From contig CBDCOH010000002.1 of assembly GCA_965219685.1 (NCBI GenBank), positions 1,120,001-1,184,000 of the forward strand: a DNA stretch of 64,000 nucleotides, given 5' to 3'. Made by a program: the position numbers and the translations under genes. This document shows positions 1 through 62,636 of the stretch, one piece after another (position 1 is the first letter of the stretch; each line of letters opens with the position of its first letter). This stretch comes from Candidatus Spongiisociaceae bacterium. GTDB lineage: Bacteria > Actinomycetota > Acidimicrobiia > Spongiisociales > Spongiisociaceae. The notes below the pieces were generated by a model. The model saw nothing but the letters and a program-made list of their open reading frames with translations. It searched no databases and was not told the origin of the DNA.

Positions 1-555
1 CGACTCCGAACCGGGAGTCTTGATGATCTCCCCGGCCACCGTCTGCAACCACTCGAAGCGCTCGCGGCTCATCCCCTCCGGGAGGATCGCCACCGACTCG
101 CAGCCCAGCAGGTTGGAGTCGTAGGCGCCGCCGCGGCAGTAGTTCCCCGTGGAAGGCCACACCGCCTTCTGGGTTGACGGGTCGAACTGTCCGGTGACCA
201 GGCGGGGAACCAGGCAGCCGAAAGCCGCTCCCACCTTGTGGGCGCCGGTCGGGAACCACTTGCCGATCAGGGAGATGATCCGGGCCTCGACACCGGTCAG
301 TTCGGACGGCCACTCGACGTAGTTGACTGGTCCGAACCCGCCCCCTTGGGCGACCGGTTCGTTGTGCCAGGTGATCCGGTACAGGTTGAGGGGGTGGAGA
401 TCCCACAGACCGATGCCCGCGAGGCCTGACCGGACCTCGGATGGGATCAGGTTCGGGTCCCGCATCTGGGCGAGGGTCGGGATGCGCACCCGGCGCTCCC
501 TGGTGTGGGCCGCCACCGACTCGAGGGCGGCCGCGTCAACGGTCAGATCGATCAT
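1..555 (-). CDS. PLP-dependent enzyme, fold type II (beta-subunit family); 3' end runs off the window
   Basis: Manual translation from ATG at 555: MIDLTVDAAALES...GKWFPTGAHKVGAAFG...AVWPSTGNYCRGG (PLP lysine motif GAHK, STGN motif); AAGGA RBS upstream; not in ORF track because truncated. Confidence 0.85.
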   Translation of the reverse strand, partial: MIDLTVDAAALESVAAHTRERRVRIPTLAQMRDPNLIPSEVRSGLAGIGLWDLHPLNLYRITWHNEPVAQGGGFGPVNYVEWPSELTGVEARIISLIGKWFPTGAHKVGAAFGCLVPRLVTGQFDPSTQKAVWPSTGNYCRGGAYDSNLLGCESVAILPEGMSRERFEWLQTVAGEIIKTPGSES

Positions 556-698
556 ATTCAGGCGTCCTTCGGCCCTGTTGGGCCGGGTAGTGGTCCATTA
601 CGGTCGATCCTCCTGCCTGTGCAGGGTGATCTGCTCTCCACAGTTCCGATCGGGCCAGGGCCGGTGCGGATCATCGAACAAGGTCGCAGTAGGACGGT

Positions 699-917
699 TT
701 ACGACCATACCCTCTCGTTGACCACGATCGCGCCAACATCGGTCTCGTCTATGTCGAGCGAACAGGCGATCAGGTCGCGTGCGGCATTCTCCACCTCGTC
801 GAAGTGCGCCGCCTGCGTGTAGCCGAACTTCAACCCGAGCACCCTGACTGCCCACCAGCCATCGGCCGTGTTGAACGCTTCAACCTGGTACATATCGGTC
901 GTACCTAGGGTTGTCAC
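699..917 (-). CDS. hicB: HicB-like antitoxin (short, N-terminal domain only)
   Basis: YQVEA..DGWWAVRV..L..GYTQA.HFDEVENAARDLIA resembles HicB; GTG start overlaps the hicA TGA (GTGA, 914-917). Confidence 0.7.
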   Translation of the reverse strand: MTTLGTTDMYQVEAFNTADGWWAVRVLGLKFGYTQAAHFDEVENAARDLIACSLDIDETDVGAIVVNERVWS

Positions 918-1111
918 CGGACGGCCTCCCTGGCTTCTCTGAGGATTGCTCTGGCAGTATGTTCGTTGACCTCGCGGTGACGGGGGATGTAGACCCGCTC
1001 GCCGCCAAACGTCCATATCTGATGGCTGCGACCCTCACGGAGGAAGCGGAACTCCACGTCGGCCGACTTGGCGATGATCCGGAGTTGCCTCACGAGGTTC
1101 CGCCTTTTCAT
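914..1111 (-). CDS. hicA: HicA-family mRNA interferase toxin
   Basis: 65 aa basic protein MKRRNLV...REGRSHQIW...IPRHREVNEHTARAIL, HicA pattern with catalytic His; upstream of a HicB-like gene. Confidence 0.8.
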   Translation of the reverse strand: MKRRNLVRQLRIIAKSADVEFRFLREGRSHQIWTFGGERVYIPRHREVNEHTARAILREAREAVR

Positions 1112-1345
1112 AAGAGGTTAACAGTCGTTATGTGCCGTGCGAGCCTGGCCACCCTGCCATGTGGCAGTGCTGGCTTCAATACCTACGCGGTGCGGGTGCC
1201 GGCCGGTCATACAGATGTTGTATCAACGACACATGGCCCCATCAACCCCTTCGTGTTGTGCCGAACCGGACTGGGCACGGTGCGGGTGCGACCTCCGAGT
1301 GGCAGTTCCTCCATATAAGTCGAGAGTGCCAAACAAGAGCGATCG

Positions 1346-1411
1346 CCTTTGGCTCCGCCAACGCCCGGCGCCCGATGCGAACTCGTTGTCGCCAATAGTC
1401 AGATCGATCAT
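1346..1411 (-). pseudogene. Decayed duplicate of the 5' end of the PLP beta-family gene that starts at 555
   Basis: 1398-1411 identical to 542-555 (GTCAGATCGATCAT); MIDLTIGDNEFASGAGRWRSQR aligns without gaps to MIDLTVDAAALESVAAHTRERR; ATG overlaps the upstream TGA, with AAGGAAG RBS. Confidence 0.7.
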
Positions 1412-2715
1412 GTCTGCTTCCTTAGCTTCCGGATCCACTGTTCCATTCTGGTGGCTATCTCGTCGGGGTCCAGCCCGTCCGGACCCGGACGGACCGGCAG
1501 GGGTACCGCGCCTGTCCTGTCGATCCCGCGCATCACCCCGCGGATGTCCTTCAGACCAGATCCGGTGGAGATGACCACCACCCGGTCGAGGGTCCCCTCC
1601 CCCCGCGGGTCTCCCTGCGATCCGTCCGCCACTTCGGCCAGCCCGGCGAAGGCGGCCGCCGCGGCCGGTTCGGGAAAGATGCCGGAGTCGGCCGACACAG
1701 TCGGGATCATCTCCAGGATGGCCTCGTCATCGACCGTCACCCATGCACCCCCGGTCTCGACTACCGCGGCCATCGCCTTGACTCGATCGCGGGGCAGGTC
1801 GGCGCTGATGGAGTCGGCGGCGGTGTCGGCGGCGACGGGCTGTTTGGTGACCACATCCTCCTCCTCCAGCCAGGCCTCGGCCAGATAGGAGCTGCCTTCG
1901 GCCTGCACTCCGTAGATGCGGGGCATGCGGTCGATCCATCCCAGTTTCAAGGCGTCCTTGAAGCCCTTGTGCACCCCTCCGATGATCGACCCGTCGCCCA
2001 CGCTTACGAACACCGCGTCCGGCGCCTCCCAGCCCAGTTGCTCGGCGATCTCCAGGGCCACGGTCTTCTTGCCTTCTCCCACGTAGGGATTGATCCCGGT
2101 GTTCCGGTTGTACCAACCGAAGCGTGCCACCGTTTCCTGGCATAACCGGAAGGCGTCGTCGTAGGTGCCCTCCACGAGCATCACGAACGCCCCGAAGGCG
2201 AGGAGTTGGGCGACCTTCGCCTCCGGTGCGGTGTCGGGGACGAAGATCACCGCGGTCTGGCCGGTTCCTGCCGCGAGACCGGCCAGGGCGGCGGCGGCGT
2301 TTCCCGTGGACGCGGTGGTGACCGTCTCGGCCCCTTCCTGGGCAGCTCTGGCCAGTGCGACCGCCGAGGCCCGGTCCTTGAGGGAAGCGGTCGGCTGGCG
2401 CCCCTCGTCCTTGATCCAGAGTCGCCCTACGCCCCAGCGCCGGGCCAGTCTCTCCGCCTCGACGAGCGGGGTCCCGCCCACTCCGAGAGCGGAGACAACC
2501 GTGGAGGACCCGACAGGAAGCAGGGGGCGGTAGCGCCACATGGACCGGTCCGGGTCTGCCGCCAGGCTCTCGCGTGTCAGCGTTTCGTTGATGGCGGCGT
2601 AGTCGTAGCGGGCGTCGAGGGTGCCCGCATCGCCGCAGCGGTCGCATACGTAGCGGCCCGGAGAGGGTTGGTACGACGCGGCGCAGACGGTGCATCGCAG
2701 CCCGGTCAGGTACAT
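1408..2715 (-). CDS. thrC: Threonine synthase-like PLP enzyme
   Basis: N-terminal CxxC..CxxC, SMWRY, PTASLKDR PLP lysine, ASTGNAA, VSVGDGS, STGSGLK; exact substrate uncertain. Confidence 0.85.
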   Translation of the reverse strand: MYLTGLRCTVCAASYQPSPGRYVCDRCGDAGTLDARYDYAAINETLTRESLAADPDRSMWRYRPLLPVGSSTVVSALGVGGTPLVEAERLARRWGVGRLWIKDEGRQPTASLKDRASAVALARAAQEGAETVTTASTGNAAAALAGLAAGTGQTAVIFVPDTAPEAKVAQLLAFGAFVMLVEGTYDDAFRLCQETVARFGWYNRNTGINPYVGEGKKTVALEIAEQLGWEAPDAVFVSVGDGSIIGGVHKGFKDALKLGWIDRMPRIYGVQAEGSSYLAEAWLEEEDVVTKQPVAADTAADSISADLPRDRVKAMAAVVETGGAWVTVDDEAILEMIPTVSADSGIFPEPAAAAAFAGLAEVADGSQGDPRGEGTLDRVVVISTGSGLKDIRGVMRGIDRTGAVPLPVRPGPDGLDPDEIATRMEQWIRKLRKQT

Positions 2716-2718
2716 CCG

Positions 2719-3657
2719 CTAGGCAGGTGGTACGGCGCCACGCCGCTCGGTGATCAGCCCGTAGTGCTCGTGCATCCGGTAGTAGTCGAAGTCGAACAAT
2801 GTCTGCTTGTAGGTGTCGCAGAAGTCGAGGTCGATGGTGGTCGAGATCACCTCGTCCTCGGTGGTGACCGCTTGGGCGATGATCTGCCCGGACGGGGCGA
2901 TGATGACGCTCTGGGCGAGGCTGTCCACCCCCTCCTCGATTCCCCCCTTGGCGACCCCGACCACGAAGGCGCCGTTCTGGTAGGCGCCGGCCTGCATCAC
3001 GAGGTGGTTGTGGAATCCGGACAGCGCGTTCTGGGTGGGGTCGGGCGCGTAGTGGAGCGGGGTGTTGTAACCGATCAGGATCAGCTCGGCTCCCTGCAGG
3101 CCGAGCACCCGGTAGGTCTCCGGCCAGCGGCGGTCGTTGCAGATCGCCATCCCTACGATCCCGCCGAAGGCGTTCCAGGCTCCGAACCCGTCCGGCCCCG
3201 GCTCGAAGTAGTGCCGCTCGGCGTGCTGGAACTCCCGCCACGGCTCGTATTGGGCGTGGCCGGGTATGTGTATCTTGCGGAACTTGGATACCACGGTCCC
3301 GTCGCGTTCCACCAGTATGTAGGTGTTGTAACGATGCTCGACGCCCTGGTCGTCGGTGGCGATCTCCGCGTACCCGAGCGCGAACCCGATCCCAAGGCGG
3401 CGCGCCTCGTCGAACAGCGGCTTGGTGTCGCGGTCGGGCATCTCCCGGTGGTAGTAGTGCTCGAACTCGGCGGGGTCCGCGACGAACCATCGCGGGAAGA
3501 AGGTCGTCATGGCCAGCTCCGGGTAAACCAGCAGGTCGACCCCTTGGTCGTGTGCATCGTGCAGCATCGTCATCAGGCGGTCCACCACTTCGCTCTTCGA
3601 CTCTTCCCGGGCGATGGGGCCCATCTGGCCCGCGCCGACGGTGATCCGTCTCGACAT
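2719..3657 (-). CDS. N-carbamoyl-D-amino-acid amidohydrolase (nitrilase superfamily)
   Basis: PELAMTTFFPRW, FRKIHIPGH, ICNDRRWPE, IGYNTP, MQAGAYQNG are D-carbamoylase signatures. Confidence 0.9.
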   Translation of the reverse strand: MSRRITVGAGQMGPIAREESKSEVVDRLMTMLHDAHDQGVDLLVYPELAMTTFFPRWFVADPAEFEHYYHREMPDRDTKPLFDEARRLGIGFALGYAEIATDDQGVEHRYNTYILVERDGTVVSKFRKIHIPGHAQYEPWREFQHAERHYFEPGPDGFGAWNAFGGIVGMAICNDRRWPETYRVLGLQGAELILIGYNTPLHYAPDPTQNALSGFHNHLVMQAGAYQNGAFVVGVAKGGIEEGVDSLAQSVIIAPSGQIIAQAVTTEDEVISTTIDLDFCDTYKQTLFDFDYYRMHEHYGLITERRGAVPPA

Positions 3658-3688
3658 CTGAGAATCCTCCTCGGTCTATCGCTGTTAT

Positions 3689-3706
3689 TTTACAGTTTGT
3701 AAACTG
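3689..3706. promoter_or_regulatory. Candidate operator: two overlapping AT-rich inverted repeats between divergent amidohydrolases
   Basis: TTTACA-gtt-TGTAAA (3689-3703) and CAGTTT-gt-AAACTG (3693-3706). Confidence 0.55.
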
Positions 3707-3750
3707 CGGTGCGGTCCCGAGGGTGGCCGTGTCGAGGCAAGGAGGTCAGG

Positions 3751-4593: not shown

Positions 4594-4615
4594 GGCCGGT
4601 GTCGGTGGCCGGTCG

Positions 4616-6786: not shown

Positions 6787-6925
6787 CAGTGAGTGGTGAA
6801 TGGTGAATGGTGAATGGTGGTAACTCTTGAGGGTATCCGACTGCTGAGCTGGTACCGGGCCACGACGAGCCGGGCGTGGCTGGTGGCTGCACGCGTTCCC
6901 GACACCCGACGCCCGATACCGGGTC
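6787..6925 (+). repeat. Heptamer-flanked dispersed element, copy 1
   Basis: (TGGTGAA)x3, 59-bp core 6822-6880, then CCCGACA/CCCGACG/CCCGATA; core matches 45343-45401 at 49/59 without gaps. Confidence 0.85.
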
Positions 6926-8306: not shown

Positions 8307-8308
8307 CC

Positions 8309-19263: not shown

Positions 19264-19830
19264 TCAGGAGAGGCTTTCCATCAACCGGTCCATCACGGCG
19301 GGTAGCTTGCGGAGAAAGAAGTCATCTGCCTGTGCGGTTCTGCATCTCGATTCGATCAGTGTCCAGTCGATTCGTTCCCTGGCCGCTCTTGCGAGCGAGA
19401 GTGCCTCCTCCCAAGTGATGGCCGTTCCGTCGGTTGCCTGTATAAGGCGATCCATCATGAGATCGTTGACCGAGATGACCCTCACGACGCTTCCCTCGAC
19501 AGCTACCAACTCCGGCGGATCCTCCCCTAACAGTGTGCTTCCGGGCACCTCAATGGCGACCTCGCGGTTGCCCGAGCCCCATACCCAATGACGTCCATCA
19601 CGGACGAATCCCACGCGGGCAAGTGCTGCCCTGTCTCCAGACTCGATCTGACCGACCATGTTGATGTCCGTTGGACGTTCGATGCCCGTGTGGATCACCT
19701 GAGCTGCGCCGCCGACCAGCACCAAGGGCGCCCGTAAGACAGCATCAAAGGCAGCCGCCGCCAAGAGCAACTGGTCAACGCTGTCGGGTGGCGCCCGCCG
19801 GGCCAGGGCGAGAAGTTCGGACGGTTTCAC
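19264..19830 (-). CDS. AbiEii/DUF6036-like nucleotidyltransferase (putative toxin)
   Basis: LVLVGGAA...G..RPTDINMV, RVISVNDLMMDRL, IDW; GTG overlaps the XRE gene stop (19827-19830). Confidence 0.6.
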   Translation of the reverse strand: MKPSELLALARRAPPDSVDQLLLAAAAFDAVLRAPLVLVGGAAQVIHTGIERPTDINMVGQIESGDRAALARVGFVRDGRHWVWGSGNREVAIEVPGSTLLGEDPPELVAVEGSVVRVISVNDLMMDRLIQATDGTAITWEEALSLARAARERIDWTLIESRCRTAQADDFFLRKLPAVMDRLMESLS

Positions 19831-20165
19831 CCCAGGAGCCGCCGCTCCACCCTCGTATCTATTCCCCGTGACTCCTTCCACGCCAGCCTCCGCTCGACAT
19901 CACGGGAATGGACTCCGTGCTCGGCGAGGCGTTGCCGACCCTCGTCCATCCGGGCCCTCACGTCGGCCATAGTAATGACAACCGGCTCAGACAGCACGAG
20001 TTTCACGCCCAGCGCACGGGCGATGCGCGCCAGCGTGGAGTACCTGGCATCCACCTTCCCCGACTCGATTCTCGACAGGTTGGGCTGCGCGATACCGGTC
20101 ATCGCCGACAACTGCGAGAGTGTGATCCCCTGCTCTGTGCGGAGCTTCCGCAATTCCCGGTACAT
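19827..20165 (-). CDS. XRE-family HTH regulator (putative antitoxin)
   Basis: LRKLRTEQGITLSQLSAMTGIAQPNLSRIESG..STLARIARALG; TATAGT -10 upstream of ATG 20165. Confidence 0.85.
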   Translation of the reverse strand: MYRELRKLRTEQGITLSQLSAMTGIAQPNLSRIESGKVDARYSTLARIARALGVKLVLSEPVVITMADVRARMDEGRQRLAEHGVHSRDVERRLAWKESRGIDTRVERRLLG

Positions 20166-20291
20166 GGTGATCAGACTATAGCGAATGTGATATAGGCAGT
20201 CGACCGTCGGACCGATCTCGACCCGGTCGGGCACGCATTGCCGAGCAGGACCGCGATCCGGCGGTGGTCGCCCGGGCGATGAAGATGGGGG

Positions 20292-21644
20292 TCACCCGCG
20301 TTCGGCAATGAGGCGCAGGACCGGGCCGGCGGCGGTCAGCACGTAGACCTCTCCGGCCGCGTCGGTACCGAAAGCCACCACCTGGCCGGCGTTGCCCACC
20401 TGATCGGTCCAGTCGAACGGTTCCTCGGAGAGATCGTCGAGCGGGAAGCTGCGCAGGTACCCGCCGCAGTAGTCGGAGAACAGGTAGTGCCCGTACAGTT
20501 CCGGGATCTCCGCTCCCCTGTACACGACTCCACCGGTGATCGAGCAGGTGCCCCCGTCCCCGTGCTCCACCTCCACGACCGGCAGGGTGATGCCCTCCGC
20601 GTCGCATCCGGATCGAGGCTGGAAACAGTGCAGCCCCTCGGTGACGGGCCAGCCGTAATTGAGGCCTGCCGCTTCGATCGGCGCCACCGACACCTCCTCG
20701 AAGAGGTTCTGGCCGACGTCGGCGATGACGACAAGGCCGGAAGGCTGGTCGATCACGAACCGCCAGGGGTTGCGAAGGCCGATCGCCCACACCTCCGGGG
20801 CCGGGAACGGATTGCCGGGCGCGGGTGAAGCCACACCAGGAGTCGAGACATCGAACCTTAGGAGGGCGGCAAGCGGGCTCCGGTCGTTCTGGCCGTGGCC
20901 GAACATGTCGTTCGCCCCACCACCGTCGCCGAGCCCCATGTACAGGTATCCGTCCGGGCCGAAGGTGATCGTGCCACCGTTGTGGTTGGGGGCGGGTTGA
21001 GGGAGCCTGAACAGCACGATCTCCCCATCCGGGTCCACGTGGCCCTCCGAGAGCGTGTACTCCGCCAGCACCGTGTCCCCGTCGAGGGCTGTGTAGTGGA
21101 CGAACAGCCGCCCAGGATCCGGATAGTCGGGGTGGAAGGCGAATCCCAGCAGGCCCTGCTCGCCCCGGTTGCGCACCCGATCCCTGATGTCGAGAAACGG
21201 CACGTCATGCAGTCCGTCGTCCCCGAGCAGCCACATTCGACCTTCCTTCGATGCGATGGCAAGCAGGGAGGTTCCGGGAATCGGTGCCAGGTCTATCGGA
21301 AATGCCAGGTCCGCAACCTCGCGATAGGCCAGCGAGCGAAGAGGGGCCAGCGTCGTGGTCGTGGTCATGGTCGTCGTCGTGGTCGTGGTGGTGCTCGAAG
21401 TCTCCGAGGGTGGCGCCACGGTCGTTGCGGGCGGCTCCTCCCCCGTCGCCGCTTTGGTCTCCACTGTCGTGACCGGCGTGGATGTGGTCGGCGCCGTCGT
21501 GGACGCCAGGTCCGGGGGTGCCGTGGTCGTTGTGGACAGGGATGTGGTCGCCGGCGGCGCGGTGACGGCCGCCGGCTCGTCGGGAGCGCTGCAGGCCGCG
21601 GCCGCCAACATGAGCACGGTCGCCAGGGTCGTCCATCGATGCAT
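20292..21644 (-). CDS. PQQ-dependent sugar dehydrogenase (GSDH/YliI family) lipoprotein with Thr-rich linker
   Basis: Lipobox AAAC, GEQGLLGFAFHP, NHNGG..FGPDGYLY.GLGDGG, GLRNPWR, DVGQ, NYGWP. Confidence 0.92.
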   Translation of the reverse strand: MHRWTTLATVLMLAAAACSAPDEPAAVTAPPATTSLSTTTTAPPDLASTTAPTTSTPVTTVETKAATGEEPPATTVAPPSETSSTTTTTTTTMTTTTTLAPLRSLAYREVADLAFPIDLAPIPGTSLLAIASKEGRMWLLGDDGLHDVPFLDIRDRVRNRGEQGLLGFAFHPDYPDPGRLFVHYTALDGDTVLAEYTLSEGHVDPDGEIVLFRLPQPAPNHNGGTITFGPDGYLYMGLGDGGGANDMFGHGQNDRSPLAALLRFDVSTPGVASPAPGNPFPAPEVWAIGLRNPWRFVIDQPSGLVVIADVGQNLFEEVSVAPIEAAGLNYGWPVTEGLHCFQPRSGCDAEGITLPVVEVEHGDGGTCSITGGVVYRGAEIPELYGHYLFSDYCGGYLRSFPLDDLSEEPFDWTDQVGNAGQVVAFGTDAAGEVYVLTAAGPVLRLIAERG

Positions 21645-23112: not shown

Positions 23113-23460
23113 ATGAGCGAGGAGCCGACCAAGCCCCAAGAGGATGGCAGGAGTCCCCCGGCGACTCCGGTCACCGAATCCCCCGAGCGGCTGAGATCGC
23201 GTATCAGGTGGGGCCTGGTGGCCCTTGCTCTGCTGGCTGCGGCCACAGTGTTTCTCGCCTACCAGAACATCGAGGACGTGCCGGTCCGGGCGTTCTGGTG
23301 GGAGTTCAGTATCCCCTTACTGGTCGTCATCGTCGCGACGGCCGTGCTCACGCTGGTGATCCAAAGGCTCGCGGCATGGGTGTTCTGGTGGAGAAGGCGC
23401 AGGACGCGTCCCTATGACGGTCCCCTGCCACGGAGACGCAAGGGCAGGCGATGGAGGTGA
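23113..23460 (+). CDS. LapA/DUF1049-family small membrane protein
   Basis: TM-FLAYQN.EDVPV.AFWWEFSIPL-TM-basic tail. Confidence 0.75.
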   Translation: MSEEPTKPQEDGRSPPATPVTESPERLRSRIRWGLVALALLAAATVFLAYQNIEDVPVRAFWWEFSIPLLVVIVATAVLTLVIQRLAAWVFWWRRRRTRPYDGPLPRRRKGRRWR

Positions 23461-33766: not shown

Positions 33767-34693
33767 GTGAAGCGTATCCTGCTGTGTGCCAACCCTGCGG
33801 CTTCGGGTTTCACCGGGGGGCTCCATCGCGCGGTCGTCTCCCGCCTTCGGCGGACCTTCGATGTCGAGGCGGAGTGGCCGAGGAGCGCTTCCGACACCCG
33901 GGCGGTGAGTGCGGCTGCCCAGGCCGAGGGGTTCGATCTCGTGGTCGCGATGGGAGGCGACGGGATGGTCCACCACGTGGCCAACGGGATTGGCGGCACC
34001 GGTCCTCCCCTGGGCATCGTCCCCGTGGGTACGACCAACGTACTGGCGAGATTGCTCGGCATCCCTTCGAGGGCCACCAAGGCCGCGGATCTCATCTGCA
34101 GCCGTCCCCCGCCCCGGCCGGCCCCTGCCGCGATGCTGGCCATGGACCACGGAAGCGGGCGTCTGGAAACCCGGCTCGCAACCTTCGCGTGCGGCGCCGG
34201 GTTCGACGCCGCAGTCGTGCAGCGGGCGGAGCAGGAACCCTATCGCAAGTACCGGCTCGGCGGCCTTCACTTCGCGCGGTCCGCCGCTGCATTGGCATGG
34301 AGTGACTTCGCAGGCCGCCCGGCCGGGCTGGTGGTGAGGTCCGGGGACCGGAAGGTGTCCGCCGCGGCGGTTTTCGTCCGCCTCTACGACCGGTACACGT
34401 ATTTCGGACGTGTACCGGTGCGTTTCGGGGCCCGCGTCCCGGACACGTTGGGCGTGCTGGTGGCTCGGTCCATGAGCCGCCGGCGGATCCCCGCAGTGCT
34501 CTTGCGGGCCATGGCTGGGCGCGACATCGGGAAGGTCGACGGATTCGAGGCATGGAGCGGAGTGTCGGCGTTGGAGGTAAGTGCGTATTCCACCGGGTTT
34601 CCGGCCCAGGCGGACGGTGAGTTGCTCGGGTCGGGCCGGAGCCTCTCGGTCTCGATCCAGCCCGACCACCTGCGTGTTCTCATGCCCGTCTGA
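33767..34693 (+). CDS. Diacylglycerol/lipid kinase family protein
   Basis: ANPAASG, AMGGDG, PVGTTNVLAR, GAGFDA, QADGE; TACGCT seven nt before GTG 33767. Confidence 0.87.
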   Translation: MKRILLCANPAASGFTGGLHRAVVSRLRRTFDVEAEWPRSASDTRAVSAAAQAEGFDLVVAMGGDGMVHHVANGIGGTGPPLGIVPVGTTNVLARLLGIPSRATKAADLICSRPPPRPAPAAMLAMDHGSGRLETRLATFACGAGFDAAVVQRAEQEPYRKYRLGGLHFARSAAALAWSDFAGRPAGLVVRSGDRKVSAAAVFVRLYDRYTYFGRVPVRFGARVPDTLGVLVARSMSRRRIPAVLLRAMAGRDIGKVDGFEAWSGVSALEVSAYSTGFPAQADGELLGSGRSLSVSIQPDHLRVLMPV

Positions 34694-34782
34694 AACGTCC
34701 GTTCTCCTCCTATGAGATCGTCGGAGGTGCGCGGTTAGTTGTTGCCCGGCACTAGTATCGCGCTCGGTGGCGCCTCGTTCAC

Positions 34783-38729: not shown

Positions 38730-38754
38730 GCTCCGGGGGTGGGACTTGACCCCA
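38730..38754 (-). repeat. att site (displaced tRNA-Asn 3' fragment)
   Basis: 24/25 match to 42256-42280, covering the T-arm and acceptor 3' strand. Confidence 0.88.
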
Positions 38755-38797
38755 AAATGGCTCATCCCGTCGAGGCGGGTCAACCTCAGTGGCTCCT

Positions 38798-40831
38798 TCA
38801 GTTTGGTAGCCAACCTAAGAGCGTGATTCGGCCGTATTCAGGTTGGGCAACAACCCTCCATCGGTTACTGCCGTCGCTATCCGTTATCCATAGCGAGGAG
38901 ACAGAGCCTGGTAAGGGTCCGGCTTCATCGAATCTGACTGGGGCTAGCATCGAGTAGGCTATACGGTTACCGTCGGGGGACCAACGAAAGTCATGTCCTA
39001 CGTTGTCAACCAGTTTCCTCTTGTTCTGTCCATCAGCGTCCGCTATCCATAGCTGCGTAGAAACGGGGAAATATGGTTCGGTCCACAATTCCCTGGAGAT
39101 GTCGGATACTTCTGTGAAAACGTCGGATGGTAGTACTGGACTGTTGGGGTCTTCTTCTTCCAGAATGTAAGCAAAGGACTGATTGTCAGGCGACCATCGG
39201 ACATTCAGAATCCGACCGTATCTCGGGTCTCCTGTGTAGAGGTCGCGCTGCCTTATCGTATCCCCGGTTAGCGTGTTGAACACGAACCCTTCACTGTTGT
39301 CAGATACTAGATGTGCACTATCCGGTGCCCAGTCCAGGTAGTTACACTTGCTTATACCTAGGTTCATGATCGTTTCACCGTTGGTGGCGTCCGCCACGAG
39401 GAACTGGGTTCCGATACCATAACCCTTCACGTAGGCGAATCGGCTACCGTCGGGCGACCAGCGTAGCTTGGCCGAGCCGGGAAGGTCGCCCAAGCCTGCC
39501 GTCAGTAACTTGACCCTGTTGCTACCGTCGATGTCCATTATCCAGAGATCCTGGTGAACACCGTTGGGATTCTGCGCTATCCAGGACACTCTCCGGCCAT
39601 CGGGTGTGAACTCCACGTATCGGGCATTGGACTCATCAACATCGATCGTGACCTGGCTACCGCTCTCAAGGTTCTCGACAACGGTATGGGAGTAGACACG
39701 TTCGTTACTGATCTCATCGAAGACACTGTAGAGACCTAACGTCCCGTCAGGAGAGAACCGCCAGAAAAGACCGATGGACCGCTTGTCCTCCCCATCACTA
39801 CCCTCGATCCAGCTCGTGCCTCCGGTACCTTCAGCAGGGTTGTACACCAGGTATCTGCTGTCGGGCGACCACCGGAAATTAAAGGACCATCGGCCCCGAG
39901 CACGGACCTCGCGAACGTTGCGCCCATCAGTGCCCATAACAAGGCCCTTATCGCTTGCCCCGTAGGCGACCCACCTACCGTCCGGTGAGAATATCGGATG
40001 AGCACCACCATGACTGCTGTACGATCCTATAGCCTCCCTGCCGCCCTGCAGCCGGACCATCCATATTCGGTTCCCGAACCCATAACTGTCCACGTAGTTC
40101 GGGTCTGCCGTGGAGTAGGCAAGGCGGTAGCCGCCGGCAAGCGACGTGGCGGCGGGAAGGGGCACGAGCTTCAGGGCGCGAGCCAGGAAAGTCGCCATCT
40201 CGGCCCGGGTCACCGACCGGTCGGGACAGTAACGCCCCTCACCGCATCCGGCGGTGATCCCCGCCGCGGCGAGCTTGTCGATGTTCTCCGCGTGTGCGCT
40301 GCTCGCAGTGTCCGAGAACCGACCGGGCGTCCCGCCGGGCAACTCAAACGCCCGCGCCAAGAAACTCGCCATCTCAGCGCGGGTCACCGGCCGGTCCGGG
40401 CAGTAAAGTGGAGGGGCGTCAGAGCACCCTCTGGTGACTTCGAGATCGGCCAGCCGGTTCGTATAAGGCGCCCACCATAGAGCGGGACTCACATCGGTGA
40501 AGCTCGACACGCCGGACGGACCAGGATCCGTCCCATCCAAGGCCCGCACCAGCCACACGGCCATCACCCATCTCAGCAGCGGATCTTCAGGACAGAACAA
40601 ACCCCCGTCGCAGTCGGTGCCCGCGAGGATGCGCCGACCATCAGAAGCCACGGCAGCGATCGACCTCGCATGAACCCCTCCCTCAACATCGGGATAGCCG
40701 CCCGCCTGGGCCGCCGCGGGCAGACCGGGCGCCAGCGGTACCATCATCACCACGATCACGGCCCCGATCAGCCGACCACGCGCTTTCGGTCGATCACCCC
40801 TGCGCCCCGGCAGGAACAGTTGACTAGGCAC
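38798..40831 (-). CDS. Secreted protein: three SLH domains plus TolB/PD40-like beta-propeller
   Basis: Signal peptide ...PAAAQA; three F/Y.DV...G....CP...TR.EMA.FL repeats; many (W/F)SPDG repeats; GAGGGAG RBS before GTG 40831. Confidence 0.85.
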   Translation of the reverse strand: MPSQLFLPGRRGDRPKARGRLIGAVIVVMMVPLAPGLPAAAQAGGYPDVEGGVHARSIAAVASDGRRILAGTDCDGGLFCPEDPLLRWVMAVWLVRALDGTDPGPSGVSSFTDVSPALWWAPYTNRLADLEVTRGCSDAPPLYCPDRPVTRAEMASFLARAFELPGGTPGRFSDTASSAHAENIDKLAAAGITAGCGEGRYCPDRSVTRAEMATFLARALKLVPLPAATSLAGGYRLAYSTADPNYVDSYGFGNRIWMVRLQGGREAIGSYSSHGGAHPIFSPDGRWVAYGASDKGLVMGTDGRNVREVRARGRWSFNFRWSPDSRYLVYNPAEGTGGTSWIEGSDGEDKRSIGLFWRFSPDGTLGLYSVFDEISNERVYSHTVVENLESGSQVTIDVDESNARYVEFTPDGRRVSWIAQNPNGVHQDLWIMDIDGSNRVKLLTAGLGDLPGSAKLRWSPDGSRFAYVKGYGIGTQFLVADATNGETIMNLGISKCNYLDWAPDSAHLVSDNSEGFVFNTLTGDTIRQRDLYTGDPRYGRILNVRWSPDNQSFAYILEEEDPNSPVLPSDVFTEVSDISRELWTEPYFPVSTQLWIADADGQNKRKLVDNVGHDFRWSPDGNRIAYSMLAPVRFDEAGPLPGSVSSLWITDSDGSNRWRVVAQPEYGRITLLGWLPN

Positions 40832-41455
40832 TGAATGTTCTCCCTCAGTGATCCAACTACCGCATCGGCCCCCCAGCCACAACCTCCGTCTCCGAGGCCC
40901 GCCGCAGTCTAGCCAACCGCACCCAACGACACTACGACAACCCCAGGAGGGGACGACGCCGACCCCTACGGCTAGTCCTCCGAAGTGTCCTCGGACAGAA
41001 AACCGGCAACGTCCAGGGATGTGATCATCACCTGAACCATACGTACCGGCCAAGACGCACAGTTTCAGTTGGCCCTGACACTCCTTTCCTCAATACTGTC
41101 CCCCGTCCCCCAAAGCCTCCAGTCCGGCAAACGGTCAACTGCGGGGGTGATAGCAGCAACGGGAGCCGGGTTAGCAGAAGGGTTCGGGGCTGTTATCGAG
41201 ATGTTGTCCCGGATGAGTGTGGTACTAGAAGTGGGACGTATCCTCGTGATCGTCGTCTAATCTGTCGATCTAGCTCAATGTTTCAATAACCTGGGCAAGG
41301 GACAGTCCTTCCGCTGTGCACCCGAGTCGAACACTGCGCCTACGACGAGGGCTCTGTGCCGGCGGTCCTGTTCGGCATAGAGCCACATTCGTGATGCGAC
41401 CAAGACCGGCTTCGAGAGCATGAGTCGAACATCGGACGACTAGCGCCTTGATGTG

Positions 41456-42060
41456 CTAGCGCTCGGAAGGTGTTTTCTGGCTCCGGTTTGTTTCGGCAAA
41501 GCGGCGGTCACCGCGTCGCCTGCTGGGTTGTCCTGGCGGTGTCCCTGGGCGATGGCCCATTTCATGACGGCTGCAATGCGTTGGCGCACCCGCTTGGCTG
41601 TCTCCGGGCGGCTGGTCCAGATCGGAGGCAGACAGTCCATCACATCTGCGGACGTGACCTCGTCCACCCGCATCGAGCCGATGGCTGGCAGCACATGGGT
41701 GCCCAGGAAGGATCGCTACTGCGCCTCGGACTTGCCGCCCGGGTTTCCACTTTCCCGCATACAGGGCGAGCACTGCTTCGGTGGCGGTTGCGAAAGTGGG
41801 AATGGCCCCGTCACGCAGGGTGGTGGGATCGATGTCTTCGTGGGCTGCTTTGCGGTACTCGAAGGCTTGCTGGCGTGCTTGGGCGAGGCTGACATAGGGG
41901 TAGCGGCCCAGGCCGAGGTCGCGGCGGCGGCCGTTGACTGTCCCCCGCCATATCCACGCCTTGGAGCCGGAGGGTTGTACTCGGAGGATCAGGCCGTGCT
42001 GGTCTCCGTACTTTCCTGGTCTGGTTTCTGATCGGACCCGGCTGCTGCCAGTTTTGGCAA
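41456..42060 (-). pseudogene. P4-type tyrosine integrase remnant (arm-binding and core-binding domains only)
   Basis: MPKLAAA/VRSETRPGKYGDQHGL.LRV..SGSK.W...GLGRYP.VSLAQAR; frameshifts near 42040 and 41740, TAG at 41716-41718; then IW..RPETA.RVRQRI..V..WA; catalytic domain absent. Confidence 0.88.
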
Positions 42061-42256
42061 TTCCCTCTCCTTCCGCCCCTCTGAGCGTCCCGCACCTGAT
42101 TGAACTACCGCCCCAATAGGAAGAGTCAAGCAACCAGCGTGAAGCTGACGGGTCTGGGCTGTGCGTGGATGAGGTCGGTCGGAAAAGGTATCTGACCTGG
42201 GAGTATGTTCAGTCCTGAAACGACCGGGGACTACAAGGAACGTCGTGGAATGGGAG

Positions 42257-42330
42257 CTCCGGGGGTGGGACTTGAACCCACAACCAACGGATTAACAGTC
42301 CGCTGCTCTGCCGAATTGAGCTACCCCGGA
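42257..42330 (-). tRNA. tRNA-Asn(GTT)
   Basis: TCCGGGGTAGCTCAATTCGGCAGAGCAGCGGACT-GTT-AATCCGTTGGTTGTGGGTTCAAGTCCCACCCCCGGAG cloverleaf; CCA not encoded. Confidence 0.97.
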
Positions 42331-45307: not shown

Positions 45308-45441
45308 TGGTGAATGGTGAATGGTGAATGGTGAATGGTGCCAACTCTTGACGGTACTCGACTGCCGAGCTAAGACCGGGCCACGACGAGCCGGATGTGG
45401 TAGCCGTTCACTGGCACCTGGCACCTGGCACCTGGCACCTA
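45308..45441 (+). repeat. Heptamer-flanked dispersed element, copy 2
   Basis: (TGGTGAA)x4 at 45308-45335, core 45343-45401, ACTGGCA plus (CCTGGCA)x3 at 45410-45437 abutting the yceI-family stop. Confidence 0.85.
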
Positions 45442-49259: not shown

Positions 49260-49547
49260 GTGGCCCTACTCGACGAATCCGCCCGCCGGGAGTTCCTGGG
49301 TTCCCACCCCGGGTGGGAACTCTCGGGCCAAACCATCACCAAGACCTACCGGTTCGCAGGCTTCGCGAGGTCGATCGGCTTCGTGGCGTCGGTCGGCGTG
49401 CTGGCGGAGAAGGCCTTTCACCATCCGGACATCGACATCCGCTACAACCGGGTGAAGATTTCGCTCACCACCCATGACCAGGGAGGCCTCACCCGAAAGG
49501 ACACGACGCTGGCCGCCCGCATCGACTTGCTAGTTGCTAGTTGCTAG
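49260..49547 (+). CDS. phhB: Pterin-4-alpha-carbinolamine dehydratase
   Basis: AE..FHHPDIDIRYN.V..L.THD.GGLT.KD; TAGGGT seven nt before GTG 49260. Confidence 0.92.
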   Translation: MALLDESARREFLGSHPGWELSGQTITKTYRFAGFARSIGFVASVGVLAEKAFHHPDIDIRYNRVKISLTTHDQGGLTRKDTTLAARIDLLVASC

Positions 49548-49613
49548 TTGCTAGGTATATTACTTAGCACTTCCGAACGATATGTAGAACCCATTCACCA
49601 CTCACCACCCCTA
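49527..49613. repeat. Inward-facing heptamer arrays between convergent phhB and era
   Basis: (TTGCTAG)x4 at 49527-49554; AT-rich 36-nt spacer; CCATTCA/CCACTCA/CCACCCC at 49591-49611. Confidence 0.8.
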
Positions 49614-58369: not shown

Positions 58370-58645
58370 ATGGCACACAACAAATCACAAGAGAAGCGCA
58401 ACCGTCAGACGGTCGTCCGGACCGCTCGTAACAGGTCCTTGCGGTCGGAGCTGAAGACCCGTGCCAGGAGCGCTGTGTCCGCGGCCCGGCAGGGTGATGA
58501 GACCGCGGCCGCCGAGGCCCTGCGGATGGCACAGAAGCGCATCGACCAAGCCGCCGCCAAGGGTGTGCTGAAGAAGAACACCGCAGCCCGTCGGAAGCGC
58601 AAGCTGGTCCGGCGGGTCAGCGAGGCATCACAGAACTCGATCTAG
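58370..58645 (+). CDS. rpsT: 30S ribosomal protein S20
   Basis: MAHNKSQEKRNRQ...RN...RSELKT...ID.AA.KGV.KKNTAARRK. Confidence 0.96.
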   Translation: MAHNKSQEKRNRQTVVRTARNRSLRSELKTRARSAVSAARQGDETAAAEALRMAQKRIDQAAAKGVLKKNTAARRKRKLVRRVSEASQNSI

Positions 58646-58677
58646 GTGTTTGGTACTTGGTGCTGGGTGATCGATGA
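58643..58677 (+). repeat. Degenerate heptamer array starting at the rpsT stop codon
   Basis: TAGGTGT TTGGTAC TTGGTGC TGGGTGA TCGATGA. Confidence 0.55.
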
Positions 58678-58683
58678 CCTCGG

Positions 58684-59673
58684 TCAGCTACGGTACCAGT
58701 AGCAGAGGGAGACCGTAAGCCGTTCCATCGTCACCAGGTGGGTCTCCTCGGGAAGTGTCTTCAGGGTGGCGTCCGCTCGGCGAACCGCATCCAGCGCCCT
58801 GCTCAGGTTGTCGCCGCTCACGCTATTCCCCGCCCGCCAGATCTTGCGGGTCGGGAAGGCGTCCGGTTTCGATCCGATCCACTTCGCCAACGTTTCGATG
58901 TCAGGCGCGGCCGAGGCTAGTGACCTCCTGCGCAGGTCGTTCTCGATGGCCGCGAGCAGGAACAGGGGATGGATGTGGGTGAGCAGGTCGTGCAGCCTGC
59001 GCAGTGCCTCGTCCACCCGGCCGCCGGCGAGCGCATCGGTGAAGTGCCAGACGGGCTCTTCCGGACGGTTGCGGAAGCGATCGCGGATCAACTCAGCAGT
59101 GATCGGCTCCACGGACATCACCAGTTGTTCCAGAGCCTGGTCCAATGCCTCTATGTCGGACCCGAACCGTTCCACCAGTGCCTCAGCGGCCTTCCCCGGC
59201 AGCCGAAGCTTCCGCTTCCGGGCTGCGCGGCGGATCCAGTCCAGGGCGTCACGCTCCCGGAGCTTCCGTATCGACACCGACTGGCCGTTGTTCTTGATGT
59301 ATGCGCCGAGCGGCGCAGGCAACCTCGCGGTCGAAACGAATACGACTTGGAGACCGGCGGCGTGCGGCTGGGAGAGCAGGTCTGCGACGGCCGTGGCCTC
59401 CGAAGCCCGGAGAAGGTGGGCGTCCTGCACCATCACGCCGGTCCGACCGCCGAACAGGGAACCGGATTGCAGGGCAGGAACGACCGGTTCCACCTCCGGC
59501 CTGATGGTCGCATCCCCCGATTCCGACTGACCCCGGCCGGGCACATGGATCCTGACGATGTCGCCCGGCGCGATCCCGGCCGAGGCGAAGACCTCGGCGG
59601 CCCGGTCCAGCATGTGTTTGCGCTCCCCCGGCCCCGGTTCTCTCGGTCCGCTGATGTGAACGAGGCTCTTCAG
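58684..59673 (-). CDS. holA: DNA polymerase III delta subunit; start uncertain (CTG 59673 or ATG 59613)
   Basis: SGSLFGG, AAEALVERFG.D...L.Q.LEQL, VW.FTDAL..G, ADATLK; comEC..holA/rpsT synteny. Confidence 0.85.
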   Translation of the reverse strand: MKSLVHISGPREPGPGERKHMLDRAAEVFASAGIAPGDIVRIHVPGRGQSESGDATIRPEVEPVVPALQSGSLFGGRTGVMVQDAHLLRASEATAVADLLSQPHAAGLQVVFVSTARLPAPLGAYIKNNGQSVSIRKLRERDALDWIRRAARKRKLRLPGKAAEALVERFGSDIEALDQALEQLVMSVEPITAELIRDRFRNRPEEPVWHFTDALAGGRVDEALRRLHDLLTHIHPLFLLAAIENDLRRRSLASAAPDIETLAKWIGSKPDAFPTRKIWRAGNSVSGDNLSRALDAVRRADATLKTLPEETHLVTMERLTVSLCYWYRS

Positions 59674-60377
59674 AGGTTCCAGCCTCCCCCTACCTGGATG
59701 AACGACCCGCTGATGTAGTCGGTCTGCTCGCCGAGCAGGAACCTCACCGCGGCTGAGACGTCCTCGAACCTCCCGTGCCTGCGCGCCGGGATCCGGGCGA
59801 CTCCGGGTAACGGGTCGGAGTTCTCGAGAGCCCCCGGGAGGACGGCATTGACCGTTATGCCGTACGGTGCCTCGGTCACCGCCATCGTCTTGGTGACGAT
59901 CAGAACCCCGGTCTTGCCGACGTAGTACGGAAGGCTGCGCGGCCGGGCCGAGAGCCGATCGGCTCCCGAGTCGGAAATGTTGATGATCCTGCCCCCGCCG
60001 TCTCGCAGCATCGGGAGCATGGCCCTCGTCACGTAGTAGGTGGCCGAGACGGTGGATGCTATCTGGGCATCCCACTCCTGCACGGTGAGATCGTCCAGGT
60101 GCTTGAGGATGAACTGCCCGACGTTGTTGACCAGAGCGTCGAGGTGCCCGACCTCGGTCCGGATCACGTCGGCCATGGCCTCCACCTCCGCCGGTGCGGT
60201 CACGTCGGCGCTTACGCAGTGGGCACGGCCACCCCCCTCGCGGATGGCTGCCACCGCGGATCGGGCGGCGTTGCGGCTCGATCTGTAGTGGACGATCACT
60301 TCGTGACCTTCGAGACCGAGATCCACGGCGAGGTGGCGGCCCAGACCCCGGGCAGACCCGGTTATGAGAATCTTCAT
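59670..60377 (-). CDS. SDR-family oxidoreductase
   Basis: ITGSARGLG, VHYRSS, LVNNVG, YYVGK (YxxxK), ITVNAVLPG. Confidence 0.93.
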   Translation of the reverse strand: MKILITGSARGLGRHLAVDLGLEGHEVIVHYRSSRNAARSAVAAIREGGGRAHCVSADVTAPAEVEAMADVIRTEVGHLDALVNNVGQFILKHLDDLTVQEWDAQIASTVSATYYVTRAMLPMLRDGGGRIINISDSGADRLSARPRSLPYYVGKTGVLIVTKTMAVTEAPYGITVNAVLPGALENSDPLPGVARIPARRHGRFEDVSAAVRFLLGEQTDYISGSFIQVGGGWNL

Positions 60378-60382
60378 GGGAG

Positions 60383-60476
60383 TCCGTGGCCCGTGGCCCG
60401 TCGCCCGTGGTCTGTGGACGGTTGCGAGGCCCTCATGGACATCGATCCACGCGCTGATGGTTCGTGGTTCTTGTGG
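60383..60476 (+). repeat. Heptamer arrays between comEC and the SDR gene
   Basis: TCCGTGG CCCGTGG CCCGTCG CCCGTGG TCTGTGG (60383-60417) and CTGATGG TTCGTGG TTCTTGTGG (60454-60476). Confidence 0.7.
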
Positions 60477-60488
60477 TCGCCGGACCTT

Positions 60489-62636
60489 TCATAGACGTCC
60501 TTCTCCCCGGTTACCCACGTCCGGAGATGGTAGTGCGGTCGGACCGGGACCGGCTCGGATCACGACATCCCCTTCGAGGTCGGTGCGCCTCACCTCCATA
60601 CCGGCGTTGTCCAGTTGTGCAAGAAGTTCCGGGGACGGATGTCCGAATCTATTGGGGCCGACGCTGACGACGGCGCTGGAGGCCCCGGTGGCGACGAGCC
60701 AGCCCGGATCCGATGTGGCAGCGCCCTGATGGGGAACCTTGAGGATGTCCACCCGGGGCGGTTCGATCTCGCGCTGGGCTACCCGCTCGATGTCGCCGGA
60801 GAGGAGGACGCGCATCCCTCCCAGCGTGGCCACCAGGACGATGGACTGGTCGTTTAGGGATGCGTAGCGCCGGATCGGGCCTATGACCTCGAGGCCGATC
60901 GAACCCACCCGGTACCGTCCGAGTCCGGGCGTAAGGATGGGCGTGGCGGCGGATGCATCCTCGACCAGGTTGAGGAACCCAGGTCCCTGACCCGGGAACG
61001 GCGCGTACCACAGGGCGCCGACGGGTACGGAGCCGATCACTTCGTCCAGTCCCCCGTAGTGGTCGTGGTGAGCATGGGAGATCACCAGCAGGTCGATGGC
61101 CCTGATGCCGAATCTTGCCAGCCCGTCCCGTATCCCCAGTCCGCTGCTACCCCCGTCGATGAGGACGGTCTCTCCCCCTTCACCGAGGAGTAGGAGGGCG
61201 TCACCCTGACCGACGTCCAGGGCCACGAAGGCAGGCCGCAGTGAGGAGTCCCCGAGTGCATGAGGGGTGGCTAGCAGCGTGACCGCGGCTGCAACGGTCC
61301 CCGCAGCAATGAGAGCAGCGGGTCGGAGCCGCTGCCGCGTCGATGCGAGGCCCATGGCGGCCAGGAACGCGCAGACGGCCCAACCTACCTGGGGTAGACG
61401 AGCCGCCAGGTGGGCGATGCCCAGCACGGCGCGGGCGGATACCGCTCCCACGGCGATCAGCAGGTCGGCGCCGATGACCGACCCGGCCGCTCCGAGACCG
61501 GTGGCGGCAACGACCAGGGGACCGGAGACGAGGTTGGCGAGAGGGGACCAGAGAGGGACGGATCCGAAGCTCATCAGGAGTACGGGGGCGACCGCCACCT
61601 GGGCGCCACAGGAAGCCCCGAGTGATACCCGCAGCCACTCCGGTCTGAGCTGGCCGAACCACCCGGTGCCGACCACGACTCCCACCGTGGCGGCGACCGA
61701 GAGTTGGAAGGCCAGGCTGAAGGCGAGTTCGGGAGCAGCCAGCAGCAAGACGCCTACTCCTGTGGCTATGACCGTCCAGGTGTCCGGCCGGAGGCCGAAG
61801 GGTCGAGCGAGCAGCACCAATCCCGCCATCACGGCGGCCCTGAGAACCGACGCATCCGGGCCTATCAGGACCACGAAGAAGGCCAGTCCTGCGAGGCCGA
61901 GAACGGCACGGCGTCGCGAACTCCATCCGAGTGGGCCGGCGATCACGAAGAGGGCGCCGAGGAACAGCGCGACGTTGCTCCCGGATACAGCGACGAAATG
62001 GGACAGCCCGGCGCGGCGCATCGATTCGTGGTCGGTCTCGCTCAACTGCGAGGTGTCGCCCAGTAGGAATCCGGCCAGCAGCGCTCGTCCGGGATCCCGG
62101 TCGGGCCTCAGCCGCTCGATGACGAGCGTGCGGACTGCGACGATCCTCGCTCCGATCCAGCCACCCGCCACGCCCGCCGGCCGGGCTCTTGACACGTGTC
62201 CTGACCAGGCCGGGTAACCGGTCGGGACCGCTCGCCCGGACGGGTCGGTGATCGGCTCCATTACCGTCCCAACCCACCATCGGGTCGTGCGTCGCCAATC
62301 GGATACGTCCCCGCGGAGCCAGCCGGCCGGACCCTTCCAGGATCGGATCCGACCGCGGTCCGCCACCGCCAGGACCCGGGCTCGGACCCACCCGTCGCCC
62401 GGCGCGCCACCCCCTCCGGAAAGGACCTCCACCAGGACTTCCACGTCACCGGTGGGAAGGTCGACCTGGAGCGCCCGTTCGGTGCGGGAGGCGAGGAGCG
62501 CACCGCTGACCATCCCAACTGCGGCGAGCCCGACGACCAGGGCGGTGTTCCATCTCCTGGTGGCAAGGACCAGGCCGAACGCGGCGATCCCCAATGCGGG
62601 TCCCCACGGACCGCGCACGCCGGCGGCGATCCCCAA
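60489..62636 (-). CDS. comEC: ComEC/Rec2 competence protein; true start may be up to ~60 nt further upstream
   Basis: GLSHFVAVSGSN, SVLRAAVM, FQLS, LDVGQGDA, SHAHHDHYGG, KVPHQG, N.FGHP, RTD..G. Confidence 0.93.
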   Translation of the reverse strand: MGIAAGVRGPWGPALGIAAFGLVLATRRWNTALVVGLAAVGMVSGALLASRTERALQVDLPTGDVEVLVEVLSGGGGAPGDGWVRARVLAVADRGRIRSWKGPAGWLRGDVSDWRRTTRWWVGTVMEPITDPSGRAVPTGYPAWSGHVSRARPAGVAGGWIGARIVAVRTLVIERLRPDRDPGRALLAGFLLGDTSQLSETDHESMRRAGLSHFVAVSGSNVALFLGALFVIAGPLGWSSRRRAVLGLAGLAFFVVLIGPDASVLRAAVMAGLVLLARPFGLRPDTWTVIATGVGVLLLAAPELAFSLAFQLSVAATVGVVVGTGWFGQLRPEWLRVSLGASCGAQVAVAPVLLMSFGSVPLWSPLANLVSGPLVVAATGLGAAGSVIGADLLIAVGAVSARAVLGIAHLAARLPQVGWAVCAFLAAMGLASTRQRLRPAALIAAGTVAAAVTLLATPHALGDSSLRPAFVALDVGQGDALLLLGEGGETVLIDGGSSGLGIRDGLARFGIRAIDLLVISHAHHDHYGGLDEVIGSVPVGALWYAPFPGQGPGFLNLVEDASAATPILTPGLGRYRVGSIGLEVIGPIRRYASLNDQSIVLVATLGGMRVLLSGDIERVAQREIEPPRVDILKVPHQGAATSDPGWLVATGASSAVVSVGPNRFGHPSPELLAQLDNAGMEVRRTDLEGDVVIRAGPGPTALPSPDVGNRGEGRL

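Follow-up and report, generated by a model that had tools for sequence, protein, structure and literature searches.

The stretch of DNA analysed here, which we call the window, comprises 64,000 nt of the genome of Candidatus Spongiisociaceae bacterium (G000:C2:1120001-1184000; genome of 4.42 Mb, ~66% G+C). A gene map of C2 was drawn from codon usage (3590 genes, a rough map), and the genes of the window were named by Pfam. A first-pass annotation had pointed to five junctions between same-strand genes at which the stop codon of the upstream gene overlaps a decayed copy of the start of the downstream gene, with the intact downstream gene beginning further on. These junctions are thrC/PLP (PLP, pyridoxal 5'-phosphate-dependent enzyme), GSDH/thiolase, lapA/coxG, lipid kinase/vanW and comEC/SDR (SDR, short-chain dehydrogenase/reductase), and the positions of all five were confirmed. 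Comparison with related genomes indicates that thrC/PLP and comEC/SDR are duplicated gene junctions with inserted DNA between the two copies, and that two more insertions flanked by duplicated target lie elsewhere on C2.

The thrC/PLP junction is read on the minus strand. The upstream gene, a thrC-like PLP-dependent gene (1408..2715; Pfam PALP, E = 3.3e-74) with orthologues in 35 of the 41 genomes searched, ends in a TGA at 1410-1408. This stop is overlapped by the ATG of a relic of the PLP-gene start (1390..1411), a stub that represents the left copy of the target duplication. It is followed by an inserted cassette (570..1389) made up of a promoter/operator-like region, a HicA-like gene and a gene for a 72-amino acid partner; the two-gene cassette measures 852 nt. 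The right copy of the duplication (534..569) contains the ribosome-binding site GAAGGA and the functional PLP start with its ATG at 555, and the functional PLP-dependent gene (1..555; Pfam PALP, E = 1e-13 on the full 486-amino acid protein) runs past the edge of the window. The closest named records that contain an orthologue of this gene are metagenome-assembled Acidimicrobiia.

Of the 22 nt of the stub (1411-1390), 19 are shared with the true PLP start (555-534): an initial unbroken run of 14 and then five of the remaining eight. Such matches were scored by local alignment of the region around a stop codon (−30 to +60) with the region around a same-strand start (−15 to +60) located 60-3000 nt downstream, and 29,515 shuffled gene pairs served as the null. 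The score of 14.5 obtained for thrC/PLP was reached by a fraction of 0.0004 (0.04%) of the shuffled pairs. The shuffled-pair check that had been proposed singled out thrC/PLP (p = 0.0004), but not the other four (p = 0.11-0.51). A stop codon overlapped by a start codon is no evidence by itself, since 1386 of the 3590 predicted genes end in a TGA preceded by A, G or T.

The same junction was compared in 28 genomes, of which 13 have a TGA/ATG overlap, nine have spacers of 12-129 nt and six carry a cassette. The 13 overlapping genomes read ...AAGGAAGCAGACATGATCGATCTGACC... at the thrC TGA/PLP ATG, and the position of the stub is that of the true PLP start there. The six cassettes (in G000, G001, G020, G021, G022 and G024) are homologous, 0.73-1.38 kb long and located at exactly the same place, with a shared right junction and a conserved promoter/operator-like stretch; the cassette is absent from the other 22 genomes. 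In G022 the stub matches the genome's own PLP start at 25 of 26 positions, and in G020 and G024 the stub has been lost and the end of thrC remodelled. The right copy in G001 retains AAGGAAG, identical to the thrC end, which puts the probable limits of the duplicated target at about −14 and +26. The G001 cassette carries an extra ~530 nt, and the site holds a single cassette family.

The cassette is single copy in G000. Its identity between G000 and the other genus is 78-82%, compared with 81-88% for the flanks (600 nt in thrC and in the PLP gene). Cassette divergence thus tracks flank divergence, which fits a single old insertion inherited by vertical descent. On a tree of the flanks of 27 genomes (G001 was omitted as too little of its PLP gene lies in the locus), occupied and empty sites occur as sisters three times (G000/G007, G022/G013 and G024+G020/G023). 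Because sister tips differ in occupancy, repeated precise loss of the cassette, or its replacement by an empty allele, is implied, with the 4-nt overlap restored each time. Horizontal transfer of the G021 stub from a G022-like donor was considered and dropped, since the stubs are orthologous and shared descent explains their likeness.

Both Pfam and the predicted fold were used to label the first cassette gene (914..1111, minus strand) provisionally as a HicA-like toxin gene. Its product scored 23.4 bits against HicA_toxin, under the 27-bit cut-off. The predicted model has an alpha-beta-beta-beta-alpha arrangement (predicted local distance difference test score, pLDDT, of 70.5), and its best match among solved structures was E. 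coli HicA (6hpb_A; E = 0.017, probability 0.97, template-modelling score 0.43-0.48). The partner, a 72-amino acid open reading frame (ORF; 699..917, minus strand) and the presumed antitoxin, has a GTG start that overlaps the HicA-like stop, and it is conserved in six genomes with a mean column identity of 88%. No Pfam, PADLOC, solved-structure sequence or fold match, HicB included, was obtained for it, the fold test being a weak one given a model pLDDT of 64. Given the sub-cut-off HicA score and a partner that matches no family or fold, 'HicAB' is only a provisional label for this cargo, and the earlier description of small cargo as toxin-antitoxin-like holds in that sense. In G020, a one-base deletion frameshifts the last ~12 codons of the HicA-like gene (L011), and the cassette of this genome may be decaying.

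At the comEC/SDR junction, also on the minus strand, comEC (60489..62636; Pfam Competence and Lactamase_B) stops at a TGA at 60491-60489. A relic of an SDR translation start (60473..60507) lies on this stop and comprises a GGAGAAGGA ribosome-binding site, an ATG at 60492-60490 and ~17 nt. A spacer (60378..60472) with a heptamer array at 60384-60410, detected with Tandem Repeats Finder (TRF), separates the relic from the functional SDR gene (59670..60377; Pfam adh_short and adh_short_C2). Within G000 the match scores 8.0, a value reached by 20% of the shuffled pairs. The two genes are adjacent in 11 genomes; G002 and G010 have a 4-nt TGA/ATG overlap and the other nine have gaps of 8-925 nt, which in differing genomes are unrelated inserts. 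The comEC stop of G000 and G007 carries the ribosome-binding site and a ATGAAAGG... relic, 39-40 nt from a conserved landmark (CTACCATC), and the distance from the true SDR start to this landmark is 42 nt in G002 and 39 nt in G004. By position this relic is the orthologue of the true SDR start in G002, G004 and G010, and with one extra A removed it shares 13 of 19 nt with the SDR start of a relative (hand count). Between the relic and the working SDR start lie 111 nt in G000 and 133 nt in G007, a spacer absent from G002 and G010. G005 and G006 also seem to have kept a more decayed SDR relic. These alignments argue that the comEC/SDR junction duplication is real and visible only by comparison with relatives. 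The spacer has no other copy in the genome and no detectable homology to any cargo. Spacer and post-stub DNA show no similarity to the downstream gene past ~22 nt (z −0.8 to 1.3), and the idea that they represent a long decayed copy of that gene found no support.

One of the events outside the window involves a 1.17-kb insert of lower G+C content with two ORFs of no known family, located between genes for an ABC ATPase and a PLP enzyme (C2:3221700-3223000). It is flanked by ~71-75-nt copies covering the stop, a 4-nt gap and the start. The site is empty in G007, G001, G003 and G005, where the matches to the two flanks have 75 nt in common, as many as the duplicated segment contains. The two copies are identical at 61 of 71 positions and both have a G000-specific variant, which places the origin of the duplication in the G000 lineage. 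Family and fold searches with the ORFs returned no match. The G002 homologue of the cassette lies in a variable region, and no duplication was detected on its flanks. The occupied junctions are bridged by contigs in four runs from four studies; no joint skipping the insert is listed in these runs, a comparison of contigs only that gives no verdict on excision. Loose contig ends at L082:2541 fall within a conserved ABC-ATPase region. The other event affects an SDR gene (C2:3657875-3658663), the last 47 nt of which recur 955 nt downstream across a 0.9-kb insert. Behind the 3'-end relic comes the heptamer array that G007 has after the stop, and the insert is absent from G007, G002 and G001.

The SDR 3'-end event came from a k-mer search for direct repeats that are unique, 22-130 nt long and separated by 150 nt to 6 kb; among its other candidates are repeats that flank inserts in intergenic DNA. 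Among the cargo of the remaining candidates are XRE, Fic/DOC (three), AbiEii with DUF6088, and PIN-like proteins. The G+C content of the cassettes is 0.55-0.62 versus about 0.67-0.70 for the flanks, which points to foreign DNA.

The four validated inserts are 0.1-1.2 kb long and the duplications about 20 to 75 nt, with a length that differs between events. The cargo is a HicA-like gene with its partner, two ORFs without a family, a HATPase_c-like ORF with an unassigned ORF, or non-coding DNA. No recombinase or transposase domain was detected by Pfam in the four inserts, in agreement with the first-pass annotation. They also lack terminal inverted repeats and share neither ends nor a core (all z-scores <1.4), and no second copy of any insert was found in the genome. 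The repeats align with a single-copy sequence in an insert-free relative for thrC/PLP, C2:3221700-3223000 and the SDR 3' end, and by positional orthology for comEC/SDR. The empty, coupled sites that had been predicted in relatives were present (thrC/PLP in 13 of 28 genomes, comEC/SDR in two of 11 and C2:3221700-3223000 in four), and one copy of each duplicated junction has decayed to a stub, as had been proposed. The proposal that cargo sits inside a coupled gene pair, between the copies of the junction, applies to two of the five junctions and to one operon junction elsewhere, but not to the other three.

This pattern was reportedly named insertion with long target duplication in 2000, in what is said to be the founding paper, by Nobusato et al. 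The accessible text of the 2010 survey by Furuta, Abe and Kobayashi (PMC2853133) describes restriction-modification gene cassettes between long direct repeats with no other mobile element; these repeats vary in length and have no further copies in the genome, and in some cases they overlap the end of a gene. The criteria given there are a duplication of >30 bp and an insert under 20 kb without an integrase, transposase or other mobile element, and DNA breaks made by the cargo are suggested to be involved. According to the accessible parts of PMC2853133, PMC3874152 and PMC3457768, such insertions occur in several phyla, mostly in naturally competent species. We conclude, with a probability of about 0.7, that the validated events are insertions with long target duplication and that the other three junctions of the window are chance matches. 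The mechanism put forward as unrecognised thus corresponds to a pattern that was named in 2000 and surveyed in 2010, as far as the accessible text of PMC2853133 goes.

The claimed thiolase stub after the GSDH stop (20268..20294, minus strand) matches at 15 of 21 positions. This junction had been ranked as a strong case; its score is 8.5 (p = 0.11), and relatives are not coupled at the position of the stub. G007, G005 and G003 are without the XRE cassette and yet have ~100 nt or more from the GSDH stop to the thiolase start. Thiolase has its own conserved upstream region, and in the other genus it is found at another locus. The claimed coxG stub at the lapA-like stop (23414..23440, plus strand) and the claimed vanW stub at the lipid-kinase stop (34686..34712, plus strand) both scored 7.0 (p = 0.51). 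The lapA-like gene overlaps coxG in none of the 10 genomes that possess it, lipid kinase and vanW are coupled in none of eight, and the lipid kinase/vanW spacer contains conserved promoter-like boxes. With no relative in which the genes are coupled, all three matches are judged from these comparisons to be chance, and of the five duplication scars originally listed only thrC/PLP and comEC/SDR, with their coupled or empty sites in relatives, stand.

Two of these loci vary in gene content among relatives. The XRE-family gene and its 188-amino acid partner (19264-20234; GTGA overlap; no family match for the partner) are absent in G007, G005 and G003. In G021 (L018), which belongs to a different genus, the XRE cassette follows GSDH with 81% identity and no thiolase nearby, and it is present at other loci in G002, G013, G022 and G017. 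The lapA-like membrane-protein gene (23115-23417, between an MFS transporter gene and coxG) is missing in three of 13 genomes (G004, G010 and G014), which have just 48-97 nt where it would be.

The shuffled-pair comparison was also made genome-wide. In the first count an excess at scores of 12-15 was an artefact of regions that physically overlap at gaps of 60-63 nt, and the count was therefore redone with gaps of at least 80 nt (5762 same-strand stop/start pairs). In-register matches scoring at least 13 numbered 10 versus 1.8 expected, and those scoring at least 14 numbered six versus 0.8. The check thus came out positive as a count, but just two of the 10 are real events (thrC/PLP and C2:3222973); three are pairs of neighbouring paralogues, one is refuted by synteny, and four are 13-nt GC-rich matches of chance size. 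Because only ~2 in 10 in-register matches are real, comparison with relatives is required. An earlier scan of 65 nt around stops against 3 kb downstream had given an excess consisting mostly of heptamer tandem arrays and paralogues. Candidate C2:917453 was rejected because gene order is conserved in every relative holding the region, and C2:501193, 1409728, 3586208, 2051580 and 2012952 were rejected as neighbouring paralogues.

In the mechanism that we propose, the target at three of the four events would be the stop/start overlap, or close stop/start junction, of linked genes, and a duplication spanning it would leave both genes whole. The left copy would supply the stop of the upstream gene and the right copy the ribosome-binding site and start of the downstream gene; the redundant halves of both copies would then be free to decay, yielding the stub. 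The first insertion may have been made by host DNA repair or recombination, either through a staggered break at which foreign DNA was captured before fill-in or through a template switch during replication. Later spread and loss would proceed through homology, by recombination between the repeat copies or by uptake of an empty allele from kin. G000 encodes Ku, ComEA and ComEC, which makes both break fill-in with capture and homology-driven spread or curing feasible. Since selection would admit only overlap-spanning duplications at stop/start overlaps, the junction pattern can be explained without any targeting.

Several points weigh against this interpretation. The primary insertion step was not observed, and sequence alone cannot separate a staggered break with fill-in, a template switch and a Campbell-type single crossover. 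No read or contig skipping an insert was found at the single locus examined. The ~71-75-nt and 47-nt duplications exceed the 30 bp used in PMC2853133, but thrC/PLP has about 22-26 clear nt (~40 counting the decayed ribosome-binding region) and comEC/SDR 20 nt or less. The comEC/SDR relic is not significant in its own genome (p = 0.20) and is recognised from positional orthology in relatives. The inserts at C2:272460, 3833684 and 3624588 were not validated: their cargo also occurs in the searched relatives, or the result was ambiguous, and no empty site was found.

Other routes to the same arrangement were weighed. A cassette circle bearing one copy of the junction, formed by repeat recombination in a donor, could enter by a single homologous crossover of the Campbell type. 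This is the only simple one-event, one-chromosome route to a direct duplication, it would explain why one site is used again in different genera and why losses are precise, and the G000-lineage variant carried by the right-hand copy of the 1.17-kb insert would fit if the donor belonged to the same population. However, it leaves the first insertion unexplained, at 20-26 nt the repeats come close to the minimum length for a RecA-dependent crossover, and vertical descent with loss suffices for a HicA-like cassette whose divergence matches that of its flanks. The circular junction was not seen (contigs only, no verdict), and we consider such entry unlikely. More doubtful still is the dedicated, unrecognised mechanism of the first-pass annotation, which would insert small cargo just inside coupled genes and leave the ~100-bp cases as scars after cargo loss. 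Three validated events do fall on tightly linked stop/start junctions, the cargo is toxin-antitoxin-like, and the in-register matches exceed those of shuffled pairs. Against these stand the failure of three of the five cases, the few real events among the matches and the comEC/SDR spacer, which was searched and contained no remnant of cargo. Specificity for gene starts or coupled junctions did not survive either, as one validated event duplicates a gene 3' end with no coupling and further candidate repeats are intergenic; selection alone explains duplication of the overlap, and the pattern is already present in the accessible text of PMC2853133.

Movement of the cassettes in trans by a site-specific recombinase from another locus, of the integrase or Xer type and with the repeats as its att sites, would draw on the precedent of integrase elements that rebuild gene ends, one of which lies at the tRNA-Asn gene of the window. 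It is very unlikely, given four targets without a common core, repeats of ~20-75 nt, unlike ends and single-copy inserts. Slightly less probable still, and ranked last by us, is a tandem duplication of the junction whose inner part was later replaced or filled. A pathway of this kind is drawn for rRNA genes in the accessible text of PMC3457768, and heptamer arrays expand freely in the spacers of this genome, one of them in the comEC/SDR spacer. The lack of similarity to the downstream gene past ~22 nt and the low G+C content of the cassettes, which indicates foreign DNA, speak against it. A bare tandem duplication without an insert was seen in none of the 28 genomes at thrC/PLP and none of the 11 at comEC/SDR.

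Insertion with long target duplication, the reading that we prefer, can be set beside other mobile systems. The minimal mobile elements of Neisseria are cassettes without mobility genes between conserved genes, with contents that vary between strains; exchange is thought to occur by flanking homologous recombination after DNA uptake, and the concept needs no target duplication. The events described here resemble them in being mobility-gene-free cassettes between conserved flanking genes, but a target duplication is their defining mark. The term minimal mobile element appears in PMC1797815 and PMC3787668. Like islands integrated at tRNA genes they have an insert flanked by a direct repeat of a gene end, with the gene left intact, but those islands have or depend on an integrase and use a fixed core, and the events here have neither. 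A direct target duplication also flanks transposons and miniature inverted-repeat transposable elements (MITEs), but theirs is short and of fixed length, and these elements end in inverted repeats and occur in many copies; no such feature was found here. With insertion with long target duplication our events share the lack of an integrase or transposase, the alignment of the repeats with a single copy in an insert-free relative and an addiction-type module as cargo. They differ from the cases in the accessible text of PMC2853133, which screened restriction-modification genes, in that the cargo is HicA-like, unassigned or, in one case, non-coding, that two of four duplications are under 30 bp, and that three of four sit exactly on a stop/start junction, where the duplication preserves two genes. 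A literature search, with subscription journals outside it, returned no report of long target duplication with toxin-antitoxin cargo in the accessible texts.

Other repeats were noted in these genomes. Repeated non-coding elements of ~250-500 nt lie right after stop codons at several of the studied junctions in relatives (L075/L050 in G006, L074 in G005, L076/L026 in G003 and L010/L060 in G001); in G006 the lapA/coxG and the lipid kinase/vanW junctions both have the same element between the two genes. These elements look like MITEs. On the 4.39-Mb chromosome TRF detected 358 period-7 arrays, 340 of them intergenic; a stop codon lies no more than 10 nt away for 162 of the arrays and a start codon for eight. 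Most frequent are the units GGTGAAT (95 arrays) and GGTGAGT (85), and the first unit often includes the stop codon. The arrays of the window are at 6789-6819, 45308-45340, 45411-45440, 49527-49554 and 60384-60410. The heptamer arrays of Beggiatoaceae, according to the accessible text of PMC4679880, sit upstream of start codons instead. A CRISPR-like array (G000:C2:2874221-2875850) has 36-nt repeats ~72 nt apart. In the window, the 28-nt 3' end (42256-42283) of the tRNA-Asn gene (42256-42330, minus strand) is repeated at 38730-38757. The two copies flank a stretch of lower G+C content with a gene for an SLH/PD40-repeat protein (38798-41053) and an integrase arm-binding fragment (41456-42133), and 38730-42330 is a remnant of an integrase-type island.

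These findings bear on how small addiction and defence modules enter conserved operons without mobility genes, which is poorly understood. The difference of the cargo from restriction-modification genes argues for a host-driven process. We tentatively suggest, at less than even odds, that insertion with long target duplication may be independent of DNA-cutting cargo, with the host's repair and uptake machinery doing the work and giving rise to a reversible, recombinase-free on/off polymorphism inside operons. In this lineage of Acidimicrobiia, its cargo would be toxin-antitoxin-like and other addiction-type modules, and in addition non-coding DNA. If this is true, an insertion could sit inside an operon without breaking its neighbours, and the flanking repeats would make it reversible. 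Where a stop and a start overlap, both genes survive thanks to the duplication, and the stub, as it decays, becomes a datable fossil of the event. For annotation, such stubs would be a cheap marker of past insertions. The thrC/PLP site, occupied in six genomes and cleanly empty in 13, across several genera, offers a natural test bed for precise loss.

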